Shown here piece by piece: positions 36,487 to 62,572 of a stretch of DNA of 64,000 nucleotides. Source of the DNA: Candidatus Saccharicenans sp. (GTDB lineage Bacteria; Acidobacteriota; Aminicenantia; Aminicenantales; Saccharicenantaceae); NCBI GenBank assembly GCA_049719515.1, contig JBNARJ010000012.1, positions 2,823 through 66,822 of the forward strand. Direction: 5' to 3'. Position numbers and translations under genes: made by a program. Numbering within the stretch: the first letter of the stretch is position 1; the number at the start of each line of letters is the position of its first letter. Under the pieces are notes generated by a model, which saw only the letters and a program-made list of their open reading frames with translations, did not search any database and was not told the origin of the DNA.

Positions 36487-37248
36487 TTAACTTATTTCGC
36501 CAGTAATGTAGGCCCGGGTTCTGGGGTCCTGCGGAGAAGTAAGGACTTCAGAAGCCGGGCCGAATTCTATAAGCTCTCCCAGATAAAGAAAAGCCACATA
36601 ATCAGCTAACCTTTTAGCCTGTCGTAGGATGTGGGTGACCAGGACGATGGTGTAGTTCTCTTTAAGTCTTAGCAGCTGGGCTTCCACGTTTCGGCTGGAC
36701 TGGGGGTCAAGAGCGGAAGTTGGCTCATCACAGAGGAGGATTTCGGGCTCAACCGCCAGCCCCCGGGCCAGGCACAGCCTCTGCTGCTGACCAATTGAAA
36801 GCCGGTGGGCGGGCTCTCCCAGCCGGTCTTTAACCTCTTCCCACAGGCCGGCTAAGCGCAGATATTTTTCCACCACGCGGTCAAGTGCCTTTTTATCTTT
36901 GAGCCCGTGCAAACGCGGGCCAAAGGCCACGTTATCATAGATTGACATGGGCAGCACCTGCGGTTTTTGAGAAAGAAGCCCCATCTTTTTACGTACGAGA
37001 GTCACGTCCACATCCGGGTCGTATATGTTTTTCCCGTCAACCAGGATTTCACCTTCCACCCTGACTTCTTCCACTTCATCCAGCAGCCGGTTGAAACATT
37101 TAAGCAGGGTGGTTTTACCGCAGCCTGAAGGCCCGATGATAACCGTGATGCGGCGTTCAGGAATCTGCAGTGAAATATTTTTCAGGACCTGGTTTTTCCC
37201 GTAAAAAACATTGACCTTCTTGAGGCTTATTCTTCCCCGGTCAACCAT
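36487..37248 (-). CDS. pstB: PstB-like ABC ATPase (operon 1)
   Basis: GPSGCGKTT, variant signature LSIGQQQRLCLAR, DEPTSALD, YITGEIS. Confidence 0.88.
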   Translation of the reverse strand: MVDRGRISLKKVNVFYGKNQVLKNISLQIPERRITVIIGPSGCGKTTLLKCFNRLLDEVEEVRVEGEILVDGKNIYDPDVDVTLVRKKMGLLSQKPQVLPMSIYDNVAFGPRLHGLKDKKALDRVVEKYLRLAGLWEEVKDRLGEPAHRLSIGQQQRLCLARGLAVEPEILLCDEPTSALDPQSSRNVEAQLLRLKENYTIVLVTHILRQAKRLADYVAFLYLGELIEFGPASEVLTSPQDPRTRAYITGEIS

Positions 37249-37326
37249 TTTTACTCCACCTGAAACAGATTTTTGTTGCTAATTTTTTTCTTGGCAAGGC
37301 CTGGGCAGTCAAGTCTTAGCAGCATT

Positions 37327-38208
37327 TTATTTTATTCTATGTCTGGCCACTTTTCGGGTCAGAACCCTGGCGGCCAAGCTCAGGCTCAGGACAAGCAAGG
37401 TCAGGATAGCCGCCGAAGCATAGGCTCGCTGTTGCACCTCTGGAAAAGGCGAGTTGAGCTGGAAAAAAATGGCCAGCGGCAGGGTGGCCACAGGTTGCAA
37501 AAGAGAAGTGGTAAGGCGGTCGGTGTAACCGGCGGTAAAGAGCACCGAAGCTGCATCTCCCAAACCACGGCCGAGCGCAACGAGCACGGCTGTTACCAGC
37601 CCGGGGAAAGCCTGTCTTAAAACCACCCTGGTGGCGGTCTGCCAGCGGTTGGCGCCAACGGCATAGGTGGCTTCTCTGAGCTCGGCCGGCACCAGGCGGA
37701 TGGTTTCGTCAAGCGCGCGGGCCAAGATTGGTAATTCCACCAGGGCCAAGGTAATCATACCGGCCAGCAGGGAGGCCCGCAGCCGGAAGGTCAGCATCAG
37801 CAGGAAGCCAAAAGCCCCGAAAACAATCGAGGGTATGCCCCAGAGTATGTCCAGAACGAGCCTGATTACTTCAGAAAGAAGTGATTTTTTCTTAAGATAA
37901 GTGTTGAGGTAAATAATTCCGGGCAGGGCCAGAAACATGGCCAGCAGAGTGGCGCCCAGGGTAATCTCCAAGGAACCAACGATGGCGTTGAGTATTCCTC
38001 CCTCCTGGCCAAGGTAATAACCGGCGCCAGAAGTCTTGGTGACCATCGAAAGTTTAAGAGCAGGCAGGCTCTTGCGCAGTACGGTCACCAGGATCAAAAG
38101 CAGTATTAAAGCCACCAGCAGGGAGGCTCCGAGCATCAGGAAGTAAAAAGCGCGGTCAACTCGCCGGCGGCGTTTGAGCCGGTCCTCAGCCGCTGAAATT
38201 TTTTTCAC
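37327..38208 (-). CDS. pstA: PstA-like ABC permease (operon 1)
   Basis: GGILNAIVGS, GIPSIVFG, REATYAVGA, RGLGDAA. The GTG overlaps the upstream TGA. Confidence 0.85.
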   Translation of the reverse strand: MKKISAAEDRLKRRRRVDRAFYFLMLGASLLVALILLLILVTVLRKSLPALKLSMVTKTSGAGYYLGQEGGILNAIVGSLEITLGATLLAMFLALPGIIYLNTYLKKKSLLSEVIRLVLDILWGIPSIVFGAFGFLLMLTFRLRASLLAGMITLALVELPILARALDETIRLVPAELREATYAVGANRWQTATRVVLRQAFPGLVTAVLVALGRGLGDAASVLFTAGYTDRLTTSLLQPVATLPLAIFFQLNSPFPEVQQRAYASAAILTLLVLSLSLAARVLTRKVARHRIK

Positions 38209-39086
38209 TGCCCGGACCTCCTGACTAACCTTGAAAGATAGAGCCTGGCCAGCAGGCTGAAAGCCATTACCACGAACAGCAAAATAAGGGCGGCCAGGTT
38301 GAGAGCTGCTTCGTAGCCCGGGATAGAAAGCATCTCCCCGTAGTTGTTCGCCAGCAGAGCTGGTATCGGGTAAGCCGGGGAAAAAAGTGAACGAGGTATT
38401 TCAGGTACATTGCCAACCACCATCAGCACGGCTATGGTTTCACCAAAAGCTCGGGCAAGCCCCAGCACGCCCGCGGCTAAAAGACCCGGGCGCGCTTTTT
38501 TCAGGATAACATGTTTGACTACTTCAAATCGGGTGGCGCCGAGAGAAAGGGCCGCTTCTTTCAGGCTGGCCGGCACAGAACTTATCACTTCGGCCGAAAT
38601 GTTGACCATGGTCGGCAGAATCATCACGGCCAGGACGAGGCCCGCGGTCAGCACGCTGTAGCCTGAGCTGGGGCAGCCAGCAAGGGGAGCTAAAAAGCGG
38701 CCAACAAATGGTACAACCATCAATACCCCCCACATACCGTAGATGACCGAAGGTAAACCGGCCAGCAGGTCAACTGCGGGCAGGATTATTTTTTTAACTC
38801 CGGCCGGAGCATATTCTGCCAGATAAAGCGAAGTGAGCACAGAAACAGGCAAAGCCAAGATAAAAGCCACGGCTGTTACCCAGAGGGTGCTCAGGAGAAA
38901 GGGCCAGAGGCCAAACTCACCTTTTTGCGGCTGCCAGGCCGAACTAAAGATAAGTTCCGGCAGCGATTTTAAAGAAATAAGCGGCCAGGCTTTAAGCAGG
39001 ATGGCCAGAAAGATGGCCGCAGTCAACAAAACCGGAAAAAAAGCAATTATGCCTGAAGCACCGGCCACCAGCTTTTCTTTTGTCAT
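38205..39086 (-). CDS. pstC: PstC-like ABC permease (operon 1)
   Basis: LAGLPSVIYG, KEAALSLGAT, RAFGETIAVLMVVGN. Start reassigned to ATG 39086, which overlaps the pstS stop (ATGA). Confidence 0.87.
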   Translation of the reverse strand: MTKEKLVAGASGIIAFFPVLLTAAIFLAILLKAWPLISLKSLPELIFSSAWQPQKGEFGLWPFLLSTLWVTAVAFILALPVSVLTSLYLAEYAPAGVKKIILPAVDLLAGLPSVIYGMWGVLMVVPFVGRFLAPLAGCPSSGYSVLTAGLVLAVMILPTMVNISAEVISSVPASLKEAALSLGATRFEVVKHVILKKARPGLLAAGVLGLARAFGETIAVLMVVGNVPEIPRSLFSPAYPIPALLANNYGEMLSIPGYEAALNLAALILLFVVMAFSLLARLYLSRLVRRSGQ

Positions 39087-40210
39087 TTCTGGCGCTCTTT
39101 TGCTAAATCTTGGGATAAGGATTTTAGCTTGATTTTTTCTTCTTCCAAAACTGCGGCGGGCAAACGCACGTAGCCGGCTTTTTCCACCAGGCTCTGGCCT
39201 TCCTGCAGACACCACAGTAAAAAAGGCAGGATTAACTGATTGTGAACCGGCCTGGTTATGACCAGGTAAAGGTCTCGGGCCGGGGGAGAAGGATAAACGC
39301 CTGAAGAAATGGCCTGCCTGAGGCTTTCTCTTGTGTGATAAAAATCTTCTTCCCCAGACAGCTGACCGTCTTCGTTCAGGTCGAGCGGGCCAACCGCCAG
39401 GCCAGCGTGCGGCCGACCTGTGGCGGGGTTAAAGGCGAAATTCAGGTTGTTAAAACCCAGGCCCAGCGGGTCGCGGCGGACGGCTTCGGCCAGCCCGGGG
39501 TCGCCGTAAATGGCAATACCTTTCAGGTCTTCCTGGTGTCCGCCGAGAAAGGCGGCCCAGGTTTCGGCCGCACCGCAGGCGTCGGACCGGGTATAAAGAT
39601 GGATGGGCGTCTGCCCTTTTTGTCCTACCAGTTCTTCCCAGGTTTTAATTTTACCTTCAATCCAGACTGCTCGGAGAGCTTTTCGGTCGAGACCTTTTTT
39701 CAGTATGAACTTCAAAAAGGGGTTTTTTTCGTTCAGGGTAGCGACCACCGCATCGCGGGCGACGGCCACCGGAAAGGCTCCGCGGCTTATTTCTTCAGGG
39801 TAGACAGCACGCGAGACAAGGGCAATATCTACCAGGCCGGACAGAACATCGGCCATACCCTTGCCTGCCCCGCCGGCCTGCAGGTCTATTTTTACCCCGG
39901 GCTGGAGTTTCTGAAATTCTTCTACCCAGCAAGCGGCTAAGGGGTAAAGAGCCCAGGCGCCAGAAATGCTCAACTGACCTTTAAGCTGAGGAAGGGGCCG
40001 AGTTAAGAAATTTTTGTCGCTCTGGCTTTGCGCCAGTAGACCAGAGGGTGACAGTAAAAAGCTGCCAGATATAAATAATACAAACAGAGCAACGGCCAGC
40101 AGCCCTGACCGGCTCAAGACGGATGGCCTTTTCCTTTTAGCCCGTAGCTTAAAAGCATTGACAGAAACCGGTTTGAAAATCGGCCTTTTTTGAGTAACAA
40201 ACAATTTCAC
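39083..40210 (-). CDS. PstS-like oxyanion-binding protein with a divergent ligand site (operon 1)
   Basis: SGAWALYP, AGGAGKG, VSR, RSDACGAAETW, YGDPG, PSPPARDLY; N-terminal export signal; RBS GAGGAGG. Confidence 0.8.
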   Translation of the reverse strand: MKLFVTQKRPIFKPVSVNAFKLRAKRKRPSVLSRSGLLAVALFVLFISGSFLLSPSGLLAQSQSDKNFLTRPLPQLKGQLSISGAWALYPLAACWVEEFQKLQPGVKIDLQAGGAGKGMADVLSGLVDIALVSRAVYPEEISRGAFPVAVARDAVVATLNEKNPFLKFILKKGLDRKALRAVWIEGKIKTWEELVGQKGQTPIHLYTRSDACGAAETWAAFLGGHQEDLKGIAIYGDPGLAEAVRRDPLGLGFNNLNFAFNPATGRPHAGLAVGPLDLNEDGQLSGEEDFYHTRESLRQAISSGVYPSPPARDLYLVITRPVHNQLILPFLLWCLQEGQSLVEKAGYVRLPAAVLEEEKIKLKSLSQDLAKERQK

Positions 40211-40272
40211 CTTATCTTTCCTCCTCAGCCTTAACCAACTATTTATCTAAAGTTTCATTTACCCAATTGCCC

Positions 40273-41283
40273 TTAAAAGCCGACCTGAAGCTGAGCCAAG
40301 AAAGCGTGGGTATCCCTCTCCAGCTGGCGGTCATGGTATTCATAGTTGACCTGGAATTTTGATTTAGAAGAAACAAACCAGTTCAGCCCCGTCGTGTAGA
40401 TGGTGGTTTTCTGCCCGGGCCGGGACAGGTCCAGATTAACAGAGTCAAGGCGCCCGATTAACTGGACCTTGTCAGGTATTAACGTATAACCCAAAAGGGT
40501 ATACCAGCCCTGTTTTTTCTGCAGGTCATCAGTCGCCCGGATGTATTCCGCCTGAAAAGCAAAGCGCCCGGCGGAGTAACTGGCTTCCAGGCCATATTTA
40601 TTTCTTACTAAATTAGTAGGATTTCCGGGAACGGTCTTTTTGCCCTGATAAAGCGAAAAGCCTAACTTCAGGCCGGGCCTGGCTTTTAATAACAGCCGGC
40701 CGCTGAAATCTTTCCGGTCGTTGTCATCTTTGCGGTTGATGCCTGAGCCGTTAATCAGCCCGAGATAATATTCAAAAATCGAATGGCGCCCGAAAAGGAC
40801 CAGCCCCTGGTCTCGCCCCGTTGCTCCGTTATCCCGGCCAGGGGCAAGCAGGTCAACCGTCTGAGAGCGGTTAATAGTTAGCAATTCGCCGGCGGAAGTA
40901 GTGTTTTCCAGACTGAAAGGCACCAGGAATTGACCGAAACGCAGGTTAAGCTGTTCGCTTATGGGAATTTCGGCCAGGGCATCCCGCAGAACAGGGGACT
41001 TGGCCAAGTCAACCTGAATTTTAAAGCGAAGCCATTTTAAAAGGCTTCCGGACAGGGAGAGCCTGGCCCGGTTGACGGAAAAAGTGTCGGCTTCGGTGTT
41101 TTTACTGCTAAATTGAAGCTGGGTGTAACCGGAAAGCTGGAGTGGGATGGTCGTCTGGATGGCCAAGCTTTCTGCTTTTTTGCTTTCCCCGTTTACCGCA
41201 GTGGCCTGCACTGAGCCCGGGCGCACCAGAATAATCAGCAGCATGACTGAAAGGAAAAGGTTTAACAAAACAGGTCGATTCAT
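40273..41283 (-). CDS. Outer-membrane porin, OprO/OprP-like
   Basis: Signal peptide; RARLSLSG, GQFLVPFSLE, RDQGL, QAEY; ends QLQVGF. ATG 41283 overlaps the rrf2 stop. Confidence 0.8.
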   Translation of the reverse strand: MNRPVLLNLFLSVMLLIILVRPGSVQATAVNGESKKAESLAIQTTIPLQLSGYTQLQFSSKNTEADTFSVNRARLSLSGSLLKWLRFKIQVDLAKSPVLRDALAEIPISEQLNLRFGQFLVPFSLENTTSAGELLTINRSQTVDLLAPGRDNGATGRDQGLVLFGRHSIFEYYLGLINGSGINRKDDNDRKDFSGRLLLKARPGLKLGFSLYQGKKTVPGNPTNLVRNKYGLEASYSAGRFAFQAEYIRATDDLQKKQGWYTLLGYTLIPDKVQLIGRLDSVNLDLSRPGQKTTIYTTGLNWFVSSKSKFQVNYEYHDRQLERDTHAFLAQLQVGF

Positions 41284-41729
41284 TTTTTCTTCTCCATGAG
41301 GTGTTTTCTGTTTATCAGCTGTTGCCTTTTGAGCACATCTGCAAAAGTGGTTTTTTCTAAGTGTAAGGCCACCAGGTCGCGGACCTCTTTCCACAGCCAG
41401 CGCAGCCCGCATCTTTCTTCAAGCGGACAGGGTTCGTGCTCGATGACGCTCACGCAGTTGATGGGCGCCAGCGGTCCGTCCATCACCCTGATCACTTCGG
41501 CTACCGTAATTTCGGCTGGCGGCCTGGCCAAATAATAACCGCCGTTCGGTCCCTTTTTGCTTTTGACATAACCGGCCCGACGCAGCAGGAGCAGGATCTG
41601 TTCCAAGAAAGGCTGAGGAATGGCCTGGCGCATAGCGATGATTTTAATGGGTACCGGCCCCTGACCGTAACAAGCAGACAGCTCGACCATCGCCCGGCTG
41701 GCATATTCACCCTTGGTGGAAAGCCTCAA
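41280..41729 (-). CDS. Rrf2-family (IscR/CymR-like) transcriptional regulator with 3 Cys
   Basis: LSTKGEYA.RA, FLEQIL, G.V.S.KGPNGGYYL, C92/C101/C107; TTG start with SD AAGGAGG. Confidence 0.93.
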   Translation of the reverse strand: MRLSTKGEYASRAMVELSACYGQGPVPIKIIAMRQAIPQPFLEQILLLLRRAGYVKSKKGPNGGYYLARPPAEITVAEVIRVMDGPLAPINCVSVIEHEPCPLEERCGLRWLWKEVRDLVALHLEKTTFADVLKRQQLINRKHLMEKKK

Positions 41730-41745
41730 CGGCCTGACCTCCTTA

Positions 41746-41770
41746 ATAGTTGATTAATTTTATCGACAAT
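41746..41770. promoter_or_regulatory. IscR type-1-like operator (probable Rrf2 autoregulatory site)
   Basis: ATAGTTGATTAATTTTATCGACAAT, a 25-bp imperfect palindrome. It matches 21/25 positions of the E. coli IscR type-1 consensus ATASYYGACTRwwwYAGTCRRSTAT and abuts the rrf2 SD. Confidence 0.65.
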
Positions 41771-42569
41771 ATCATATAATAATTTTAAGGGTGCTTGTCA
41801 ACAAGTTTTTTGCGGGCGGCGGCCAGAAATTCAGACTGGTCTGGACCGCCCGGACGACAGATAAATTTAAGATAATTTTTTTCTTGTCTGAATACATTTC
41901 GAAGACAGAAGATTTTTTGACCGGCTAAATATCATTTAAGGTTCGACACGGTATTTTCCGGGGGAAAAGAAGAAAAGAAAATTGAGGAAAAGCTGAAACG
42001 GCCTCCCCGGCCGTACCGGCTCCGGTCTCTCACCGAGGAAGTCCATCTGTCGAGCACCATATCAAATAGATATTTGAACGCCCCGCTCAACCACACTCCT
42101 TGTGGCTCTCAACATAACTCAAAGAAATACCAGATAACCTTCAGTTGATTAAAAAAATTTTATTTTCGTTGAGACCATAATTCGACCAGAAACGTCATTC
42201 AGGGTGGCAATAAAAGCGGTCAGGTTCCACTGGTAATGACCGCCCTGCCCGCATTTCCTGTTTTTCGAGGAAATATGCTTAAGCAACAGAGGCCCTAACT
42301 TTAACCGGCGTTTTTATAAAGATTAAAATAAAAAAATTAGATATTGCTTAGAAATTGGTTGCTTTATTTGCCGGTTGAATGTTTATGTCGATGTATTAGA
42401 ATTGTAGAAGCAGGGTAGCGTTTAGAAGGTTTGCCTAAAAAACGGTGTTTGGCTTTCGGCCCGGGCCAGCTTCCGGGCGAAACTGGTGGAAAATTTTTAT
42501 AAGAAATTTTATTATTAAGTTATAAAATAAACTTTGGTTTCGAATTTTCAGGTCAGACCGGAGGGCAAA

Positions 42570-62534: not shown

Positions 62535-62572
62535 GTGAAGAACCGGTGAAAGAAAAGTTAAGATTTGGTTAA
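62535..62572 (-). promoter_or_regulatory. Pho-box-like direct repeats
   Basis: Minus strand TTAAC-N6-TTAAC-N6-TTCAC-N6-TTCAC: four units with an exact 11-bp period, upstream of the porin-pstSCAB-phoB operon. Confidence 0.75.

Follow-up and report, generated by a model that had tools for sequence, protein, structure and literature searches.

The 64,000-nucleotide stretch of Candidatus Saccharicenans sp. DNA analyzed here (contig JBNARJ010000012.1; hereafter, the window) contains at positions 36487 to 41770 a set of genes that resembles a phosphate-specific transport (pst) operon and is headed by a gene for an Rrf2-type regulator. Six genes on the minus strand form one compact unit: rrf2, a porin O/P gene, a pstS-like gene, pstC, pstA, and pstB, the last four products being denoted below with primes. 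The rrf2 gene (41729 to 41280) has a TTG start codon and an AAGGAGG ribosome binding site (RBS), and its product matches PF02082 (132.8 bits) and TIGR00738 (127.9 bits). The porin gene runs from an ATG at 41283 to 40273 and encodes a member of the OprO/OprP family (Porin_O_P, PF07396; 85.5 bits against a gathering score of 20.9). The gene for the PstS-like substrate-binding protein (40210 to 39083; PF12849) begins with GTG behind a GGAGG RBS and is followed by pstC (39086 to 38205, ATG start), pstA (38208 to 37327, GTG start), and pstB (37248 to 36487). Stop and start codons overlap, as read from the sequence, in ATGA at the rrf2/porin junction (41283 to 41280) and the pstS/pstC junction (39086 to 39083) and in GTGA at the pstC/pstA junction (38208 to 38205), and pstA and pstB are spaced by 78 nt. 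A reading of this DNA from its sequence only had described genes from rrf2 to pstB on a single strand joined by ATGA/GTGA overlaps, which is correct in every particular, and the first of these overlaps couples rrf2 to the porin gene rather than leaving the two separate. The same arrangement is found repeatedly in relatives and so does not reflect chance adjacency.

The membrane components of the unit are of the Pst type. PstC′ scores 255.8 bits with TIGR02138 (cutoff, 196) and PstA′ scores 212 bits with TIGR00974 (cutoff, 193), while PstB′ falls just short of the TIGR00972 cutoff (338.2 versus 343.2 bits), a model with which the canonical paralog elsewhere in the window scores 408.9 bits. In Escherichia coli, phosphate is coordinated within the membrane by R237 and E241 of PstC and R220 of PstA (PMC12976172). 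The R237/E241 equivalents are retained in PstC′ within the motif RAFGET, which is found in 137 of 142 family members. PstA′ retains the equivalent of R220, so that the Arg237/Arg220 anion site of Pst permeases is present; across the clade, E224 is replaced by Asp and ETAP by DAAS, and the motif GRG[IL]GDAA occurs in 110/126 family members. The two permeases score only 45.6 and 44.1 bits with the CysT model of the SulT sulfate transporters (cutoff, 246), and the PstS-like protein has no match to the Sbp/CysP family (PF13531), belonging instead to PBP_like_2.

The binding protein departs from known phosphate-binding proteins in its anion pocket. PstS′ scores 86.2 bits with TIGR02136 (cutoff, 206.6) and 63 bits with TIGR00975 (cutoff, 205). 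Its fold remains that of PstS: an AlphaFold2 model has a predicted local distance difference test score of 87, and its top matches in the Protein Data Bank are all phosphate-binding proteins. The pocket residues are G84-A85-W86-A87, A115, S133-R134, R208, D210, C212, A214, and W218, and homologs that are 46 to 91% identical share the invariant blocks SGAWALYP, (Q/S)AGGAGKG, VSR, TRSD(A/S)CGAAxTW, and YPSPPAR. The canonical PstS of the window has GSDT, GGGSGTG, HSR, and RQSNSGT at the same positions. Phosphate is held in S-type PstS proteins by the side chains of S15, T17, T45, S63, S146, and T148, and the substitution T17A abolishes binding, while T148A strongly weakens it (PMC13614923). Alignment of SphX with PstS′ pairs these six residues with A85, A87, A115, S133, C212, and A214, respectively. 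Five of the six phosphate-holding hydroxyl side chains are therefore Ala or Cys in the clade, and S133 alone is kept. PstS′ thus has neither Asp56 nor the Thr/Ser triad with Ser/Thr hydroxyls by which phosphate is bound in PstS proteins.

These replacements characterize the whole clade. A profile search of 1.84 billion representatives returned 352 clusters at an E value of ≤1e−30. Among 236 cluster representatives of the clade, A85 and A87 are each found in 232/236 and A115 in 232/232, and C212, A214, R208, D210, and W218 are each found in all 236; W86 is present in 225/236, with Phe in 7. As judged from the alignment, on which the pocket geometry rests, all candidate proton acceptors and four further hydroxyl donors are gone, and the Arg-x-Asp and Ser-Arg pairs are kept. 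We infer that such a pocket would fit a fully ionized tetrahedral anion better than HPO4(2−). Outer clades of the family carry variant pocket motifs (SGAFALYP, SGAYALYP, RSDxSGA, and GGTGKG), which suggests that there may be further anion specificities within this radiation.

The window also contains a second, canonical operon outside the unit, also on the minus strand (62447 to 57030; porin-pstS-pstC-pstA-pstB-response regulator), that served as a comparator. All four of its Pst proteins exceed their NCBIfam cutoffs (PstS, 238.5 bits against the TIGR02136 cutoff), and the best match of its response regulator is PhoB, although below the cutoff (234.9 bits versus 296). About 90 to 125 nt before the start codon of this operon, at 62535 to 62572 on the minus strand, are four tandem TTMAC repeats with an 11-bp period. 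They occur nowhere else in the window, where 0.05 matches would be expected by chance, and they are a candidate PhoP/PhoB-type Pho box for Aminicenantes. Scans of the window for E. coli-type and TTMAC repeats found no Pho-box-like repeats upstream of the rrf2 unit, the E. coli-type box having no match anywhere in the window at ≤3 mismatches and so being uninformative by itself. The sequence-only reading had noted that the rrf2 unit lacks a Pho box while a second, Pho-boxed pst operon with a PhoB-like regulator lies nearby, and both observations hold. No phoU gene was found in the 64-kb window. The first gene of the canonical operon encodes a 357-amino-acid outer membrane protein that no NCBIfam model matched, and the operon ends in the PhoB-like regulator gene, beside which there is no histidine kinase gene in the window.

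Gene neighborhoods of the PstS-like clade were surveyed in 166 nonidentical loci, which were collected by looking up exact proteins, by scanning the species genomes of GTDB, and by scanning metagenomes with a lead member of the type found in anaerobic methanotrophic archaea of group ANME-1. The GTDB scan identified the clade in at least 568 species, archaea included, and the best 80 were taken into the survey. Upstream counts refer to the 146 loci that had 700 bp or more of sequence on that side. The rrf2 gene immediately precedes the transporter genes in the same orientation in 95/146 loci (70/79 in the Aminicenantes-led set and 25/67 in the other set), whereas phoU is present in 0/166, both in searches with E. 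coli and Aminicenantes PhoU as seeds and in the precomputed Pfam annotations of the loci. The comparison of rrf2 with phoU that the sequence-only reading had proposed as its check therefore came out in favor of rrf2. Loci of the canonical clade, in contrast, do carry PhoU/PhoBR or Pho-box-like repeats, and in one of two control loci, genes for a response regulator and a kinase come after pstSCAB-phoU. Approximately eleven contigs are apparently common to the match lists of both clades, an indication that related genomes, too, retain the two systems.

A porin O/P gene follows rrf2 in 43/146 loci, and DUF2490 or Alginate_exp barrels are found in other phyla. In loci of the Kiritimatiellia type and others (L079:6873-7583, L081:9542-10204, L053, L113, L121, L147, and L155), the genes for the DUF2490 proteins lie within the operon or just behind it, and the proteins may be outer membrane channels replacing the O/P porin. 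In eight loci, mostly archaeal, a small ribbon-helix-helix (RHH; CopG-like) gene takes the place of rrf2; loci with RHH genes, mainly ANME-1-type and related, are L070, L094, L108, L126, L134, L148, L172, L176, and L177. The loci without rrf2, RHH, or cys genes showed no second theme, their neighbors being a mixture of proteins with MshEN and universal stress protein domains, histidine kinases, transposases, and shikimate genes. In three metagenome loci without rrf2 (L117, L130, and L135), pstS′ is immediately preceded by a gene for an MshEN-domain plus universal stress protein.

The only recurrent metabolic partners in the surveyed loci are genes of sulfate activation (cysD/cysN, sat, cysC, and cysH), which were found beside the transporter in 17/166 loci belonging to archaea and to several phyla of bacteria; in most cases, they share its strand and operon. 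In nine of these loci, cysD-cysN directly precedes or follows the transporter genes on the same strand (L070, L094, L102, L104, L105, L108, L122, L145, and L177). The order is pstS′CAB-cysD-cysN-cysC in L145 and cysD-cysN-pstS′CAB in L102, L108, and L122, and L070 and L094 are ANME-1 loci. A cysNDC cluster is convergent to the transporter in L156; sat is adjacent in L096, L126, L134, and L151; L155 has a cysH-like gene; and L035 has genes for adenosine 5′-phosphosulfate (APS) kinase and a sulfotransferase. L124 is doubtful, since its cysN-like match is on the opposite strand approximately 7 kb away. The cys- or sat-linked loci encode binding proteins with the signature of the window protein. 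If a chance rate of 1 to 2% is assumed, which is our own rough estimate, the excess of such neighbors has a P value of ∼1e−9 to 1e−6.

The regulator at the head of the unit has features that suggest an iron-sulfur (Fe-S) sensor. It contains Cys92-X8-Cys101-X5-Cys107 and Glu8 but no His following C107, and among the operon-linked Rrf2 proteins, the Cys triad is found in 85/96 and E8 in 96/96. Its scores with NF047409 (CymR; 107.7 bits) and TIGR02010 (IscR; 94.8 bits) are below the respective cutoffs of 195 and 207.55. The nearest solved structure is Thermincola potens IscR (4cic), followed by CymR, and the three positions changed from Cys to Ser in 4cic align with C92, C101, and C107.

A promoter-like site precedes rrf2 on the minus strand at 41773 to 41801, with a −35 hexamer TTGACA (41801 to 41796), a 17-nt spacer, and a −10 hexamer TATATG (41778 to 41773). 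This site was read by eye, the consensus promoter scan having omitted it because position 6 of its −10 hexamer is G, and its function is presumed. Immediately downstream lies a 25-bp putative Rrf2 operator, ATTGTCGATAAAATTAATCAACTAT (41746 to 41770, minus strand), which begins 2 nt past the −10 hexamer and stops 1 nt short of the RBS. A protein bound there would therefore cover the transcription start. The element was recovered with a position weight matrix built from 93 upstream regions (consensus, ATAGTCGATTGAATTAGTCGACTAA) and is located 12 to 18 nt ahead of the rrf2 start codon in most loci. At 32.1 bits, the window operator is the sole site in the 64 kb to reach 12 bits, and the maximum in 50 shuffles was 17.7 bits. 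It agrees at 21 of 25 positions with what we take to be the type-1 consensus of E. coli IscR. When 1.68 Mb of related loci was scanned with the matrix, all but one of the extra sites of ≥18 bits were in the spacer between rrf2 and the porin gene or pstS′; this second copy of the operator occurs in the 17 loci in which rrf2 is not overlapped by the next gene (L034, L071, L077, L087, and 13 others). Because the extra copies precede the porin gene or pstS′ precisely where rrf2 is uncoupled from them, the comparison argues strongly that Rrf2 acts on the transporter genes in their own right and that the operator is largely specific to this operon. The 765-bp region upstream of rrf2 (41771 to 42533) contains no notable open reading frame, but it does contain a terminator-like hairpin on the minus strand (42008 to 41986). 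An Rfam scan of the whole window yielded a single tRNA and nothing in this region, which may hold an unannotated small RNA or leader.

Taken together, these data lead us to propose that the unit is probably a Pst-derived ATP-binding cassette (ABC) importer for sulfate, possibly also for thiosulfate, and not a phosphate transporter, and that it is repressed by a Cys3 Fe-S Rrf2 protein when sulfur or Fe-S clusters are sufficient. Sulfate import is the most likely function because the residues that hold phosphate have been lost, relatives adjoin sulfate activation genes, and an Fe-S-type Rrf2 heads the operon; the ligand, the binding of a cluster, and the direction and signal of regulation are what we infer from these features. 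In this model, the OprO/P-type porin would let the anion through the outer membrane. PstS′ would then capture sulfate in a pocket that lacks the proton-accepting and hydroxyl ligands for HPO4(2−) and offers Arg208/Asp210 and Ser133/Arg134. The arginine pair of PstC′/PstA′ would pass the anion across the inner membrane, driven by PstB′ in a PstC′A′B′2 complex. The Rrf2 protein, with a predicted Fe-S site formed by Cys3 (plus Glu8), would bind the 25-bp operator over the transcription start and repress the operon, including its own gene. A shortage of sulfide, cysteine, or Fe-S clusters or the oxidation of the cluster would release the repressor from the DNA and switch on ATP-costly sulfate uptake. 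Such logic would suit an anaerobe that normally lives on sulfide and spends ATP on sulfate only if sulfide is lacking. The genes sat, cysC, cysH, and sir are reported from one Aminicenantes genome (PMC4897734), and therefore, the downstream pathway exists in the phylum.

The sequence-only reading had inferred a transporter under sulfur or Fe-S control that may carry an oxyanion other than phosphate, and this is supported in its sulfate/sulfur branch by the pocket changes, the cysDN/sat/cysC adjacency, and the linkage to rrf2. Control of the operon by Rrf2 likewise gains support from the operator on the promoter and from its duplication before the transporter genes where rrf2 is not coupled. 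Among the oxyanions that had been listed, with sulfate and thiosulfate at the head, sulfate is favored because of the binding-site changes and the repeated adjacency to cysDN, sat, or cysC. The molybdate/tungstate and phosphite readings were set aside, since the flanking proteins scanned with Pfam and the precomputed Pfam annotations showed no supporting neighbor genes and no other evidence in their favor was found.

Several observations weigh against sulfate. Adjacent cys or sat genes occur in only ∼10% of loci; the window and Aminicenantes loci generally have no adjacent sulfate assimilation gene, and the link rests on relatives whose binding proteins are 46 to 55% identical. Both permeases pass phosphate-permease equivalog models, and the membrane arginine pair that is kept here is said to set specificity for inorganic phosphate in E. 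coli (PMC12976172). The RNA record does not help: in a sludge library labeled RNA-Seq (X11/X12, apparently one data set filed twice, with DNA carryover possible), contigs of 151 to 283 nt with 0 to 1 mismatches cover parts of pstA, pstC, and pstS′ (window positions 37520 to 39720). These contigs are consistent with low expression, but they are scattered and short and give no information on cotranscription, operon structure, or induction. Finally, Cys212 and Trp86 of the pocket are foreign to the known sulfate-binding protein and may mean that another sulfur anion is bound.

That last point introduces the strongest competing explanation, in which the substrate is a different fully ionized or sulfur anion (thiosulfate, sulfite, polysulfide or hydrosulfide, selenate, or molybdate/tungstate). 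The invariance of Cys212 and the presence of Trp218 in addition to Trp86, none of which is found in the classical sulfate-binding protein, would be in keeping with such a ligand, as would some of the neighbors, namely, formate/nitrite transporter (FNT) family channels (L083, L086, L098, and L135), a metallo-β-lactamase (MBL)-rhodanese fusion (L088), and a formylglycine-generating enzyme (FGE)-sulfatase (L095). The variant motifs of the outer clades likewise suggest that specificity has diversified. ATP sulfurylase, moreover, also acts on selenate and molybdate. However, the enzymes that recur as operon partners are ATP sulfurylase (CysDN or Sat) and APS kinase, neither of which is needed for the assimilation of thiosulfate or sulfide, and the flanks showed no recurring mod/moa/tup, cysM, or selenium genes. 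We consider another anion unlikely on this evidence.

Less likely again is that the unit is a second, genuine phosphate transporter that binds its ligand in an unusual way, with uptake following iron or redox status through Fe-S or redox control. The scores of PstC′ (255.8 bits) and PstA′ (212 bits) above the permease cutoffs, the near miss of PstB′, the retained R237/E241 and R220 equivalents, the origin of the porin in the phosphate-selective OprO/P family, and the exclusively phosphate-binding structural matches all agree with it. It would have to accommodate the replacement of five of six phosphate-holding hydroxyls, among them the two Thr residues at which mutation destroys or severely impairs binding, as well as the lack of PhoU, PhoBR, or Pho boxes in the 166 loci. 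A canonical system with a Pho box is present alongside it in the window and, it seems, in related genomes, and the sole recurrent metabolic neighbors are sulfate activation genes. The suggestions of the sequence-only reading that the unit ties phosphate uptake to Fe-S status, or that it is a horizontally acquired true phosphate system, thus found no support. Import of reduced phosphorus (phosphite or hypophosphite) or of phosphonate, with hydrophobic residues facing a P-H or P-C bond, is very improbable: the changes from hydroxyl residues to Ala or Trp would suit a less oxygenated ligand and an Fe-S regulator could conceivably report anoxia, where reduced phosphorus persists, but known phosphite- and phosphonate-binding proteins are of the PhnD type, and no phosphite or phosphonate metabolism gene appeared in Pfam scans of ∼30 flanking proteins or in precomputed Pfam annotations, there having been no targeted search for ptxD, htxA, or phn.

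Comparison with characterized systems places the proposed sulfate importer in the PhoT family (TC 3.A.1.7) by homology. Like PstSCAB of E. coli (9K3S/9K3X; PMC12976172), it is a five-part assembly of one binding protein with the PstS fold, two permeases, and an ATPase, with PstC, PstA, and PstB being homologous and the membrane Arg pair having Glu/Asp partners. Unlike PstSCAB, its binding protein has a pocket without an Asp or Thr/Ser proton acceptor and without four further hydroxyls, PstA of the clade has Asp for E224 and DAAS for ETAP, and the clade is associated with Rrf2 or RHH regulators and sulfate activation neighbors instead of PhoU, PhoBR, and a Pho box. The unit therefore differs from phosphate transporters at its binding protein and its regulation, and it is not a member of SulT. 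The closest relatives of PstS′ in both sequence and structure are the S-type phosphate-binding proteins (Synechocystis SphX, Clostridium perfringens PBP-1, and Sll0540; PMC13614923), with which it shares an S-R pair at the position of D56 and the Arg-x-Asp pair. In the clade, however, GS(x)T of these proteins is replaced by GAWA, GGSG by GGAGKG, and SGT by CGA, and therefore, the Thr/Ser-centered triad is gone.

The CysPTWA/Sbp systems (SulT; TC 3.A.1.6) resemble the unit in their energy coupling and in the substrate proposed here, and CysPTWA belongs to a cysteine regulon near cysDN, but they form another ABC subfamily, and PstS′ is a PBP_like_2 protein rather than one of the Sbp/CysP type. 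The nearest precedent in kind is CysP of Bacillus subtilis, a homolog of PiT-family phosphate transporters that carries sulfate and has lost the aspartates essential for phosphate (PMC5840216). CysP is likewise a member of a phosphate family that was recruited for sulfate and is encoded with sulfate assimilation genes, although it is a secondary carrier of unrelated fold and not an ABC transporter. With T. potens IscR, the regulator shares the Rrf2 winged helix and equal spacing of Cys92/101/107, and with IscR generally a type-1-like palindromic operator over its own promoter; with CymR of Bacillus and Staphylococcus, it would share the control of sulfur-related uptake. It differs from both in scoring below their equivalog cutoffs, in having an invariant Glu8 instead of His107, and in being dedicated, in the window and the surveyed loci, to a single transporter operon and not to isc/suf or a wide cysteine regulon. 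It further differs from CymR, which is clusterless and acts with CysK, in its conserved Cys triad.

Five families of prokaryotic sulfate transporters are currently recognized (SulT, SulP, CysP of the PiT family, DASS, and CysZ), none of them of the Pst type (PMC5840216). Our searches of the literature for Rrf2 with pstS, Pst-type sulfate transport, and sulfate transporters of ANME archaea and methanogens returned no description of such a system. On balance, we favor the view that this branch of the Pst (PhoT) family constitutes a sixth, previously unrecognized family of sulfate transporters, present in at least 568 GTDB species and in many lineages under a dedicated Fe-S Rrf2 repressor that would read sulfide or sulfur sufficiency through cluster occupancy. 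As proposed marks of the branch, we offer SGAWALYP, GGAGKG, and RSD(A/S)CGAA in the binding protein and GRG(I/L)GDAA in PstA. Its members, which include ANME-1, ANME-2, and Bathyarchaeia, are universally annotated as phosphate uptake proteins. If the proposal is correct, pstS, pstC, pstA, and pstB have been miscalled thousands of times in anaerobic bacteria and archaea, in genomes and metagenomes alike, and surveys that read pst genes as a sign of phosphorus limitation would overcount. It would also supply a missing route of sulfate uptake to sulfate-activating organisms with uncertain transporters, such as ANME-1 and many uncultivated anaerobes; a survey of ANME genomes called the specificity of their putative transporters uncertain (PMC6286981). 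The branch would further provide a natural example of an anion pocket retuned from HPO4(2−) to a nonprotonated anion and of an Fe-S sensor tied directly to sulfur acquisition.

Two further features of the surveyed loci were recorded. FNT channel genes accompany the transporter in Anaerolineae-type loci, upstream in L083, L086, L098/L101, and L135 and downstream in L111; in L083 and L098/L101, the gene directly precedes rrf2. The channel could be one for hydrosulfide or sulfite. In L096 (8989 to 11163), pstS′ and pstC′ are separated by genes for an additional ABC ATPase, a GTPase of the CobW family, and a “FeS” protein (PF04060), and the ATP sulfurylase gene is convergent downstream.

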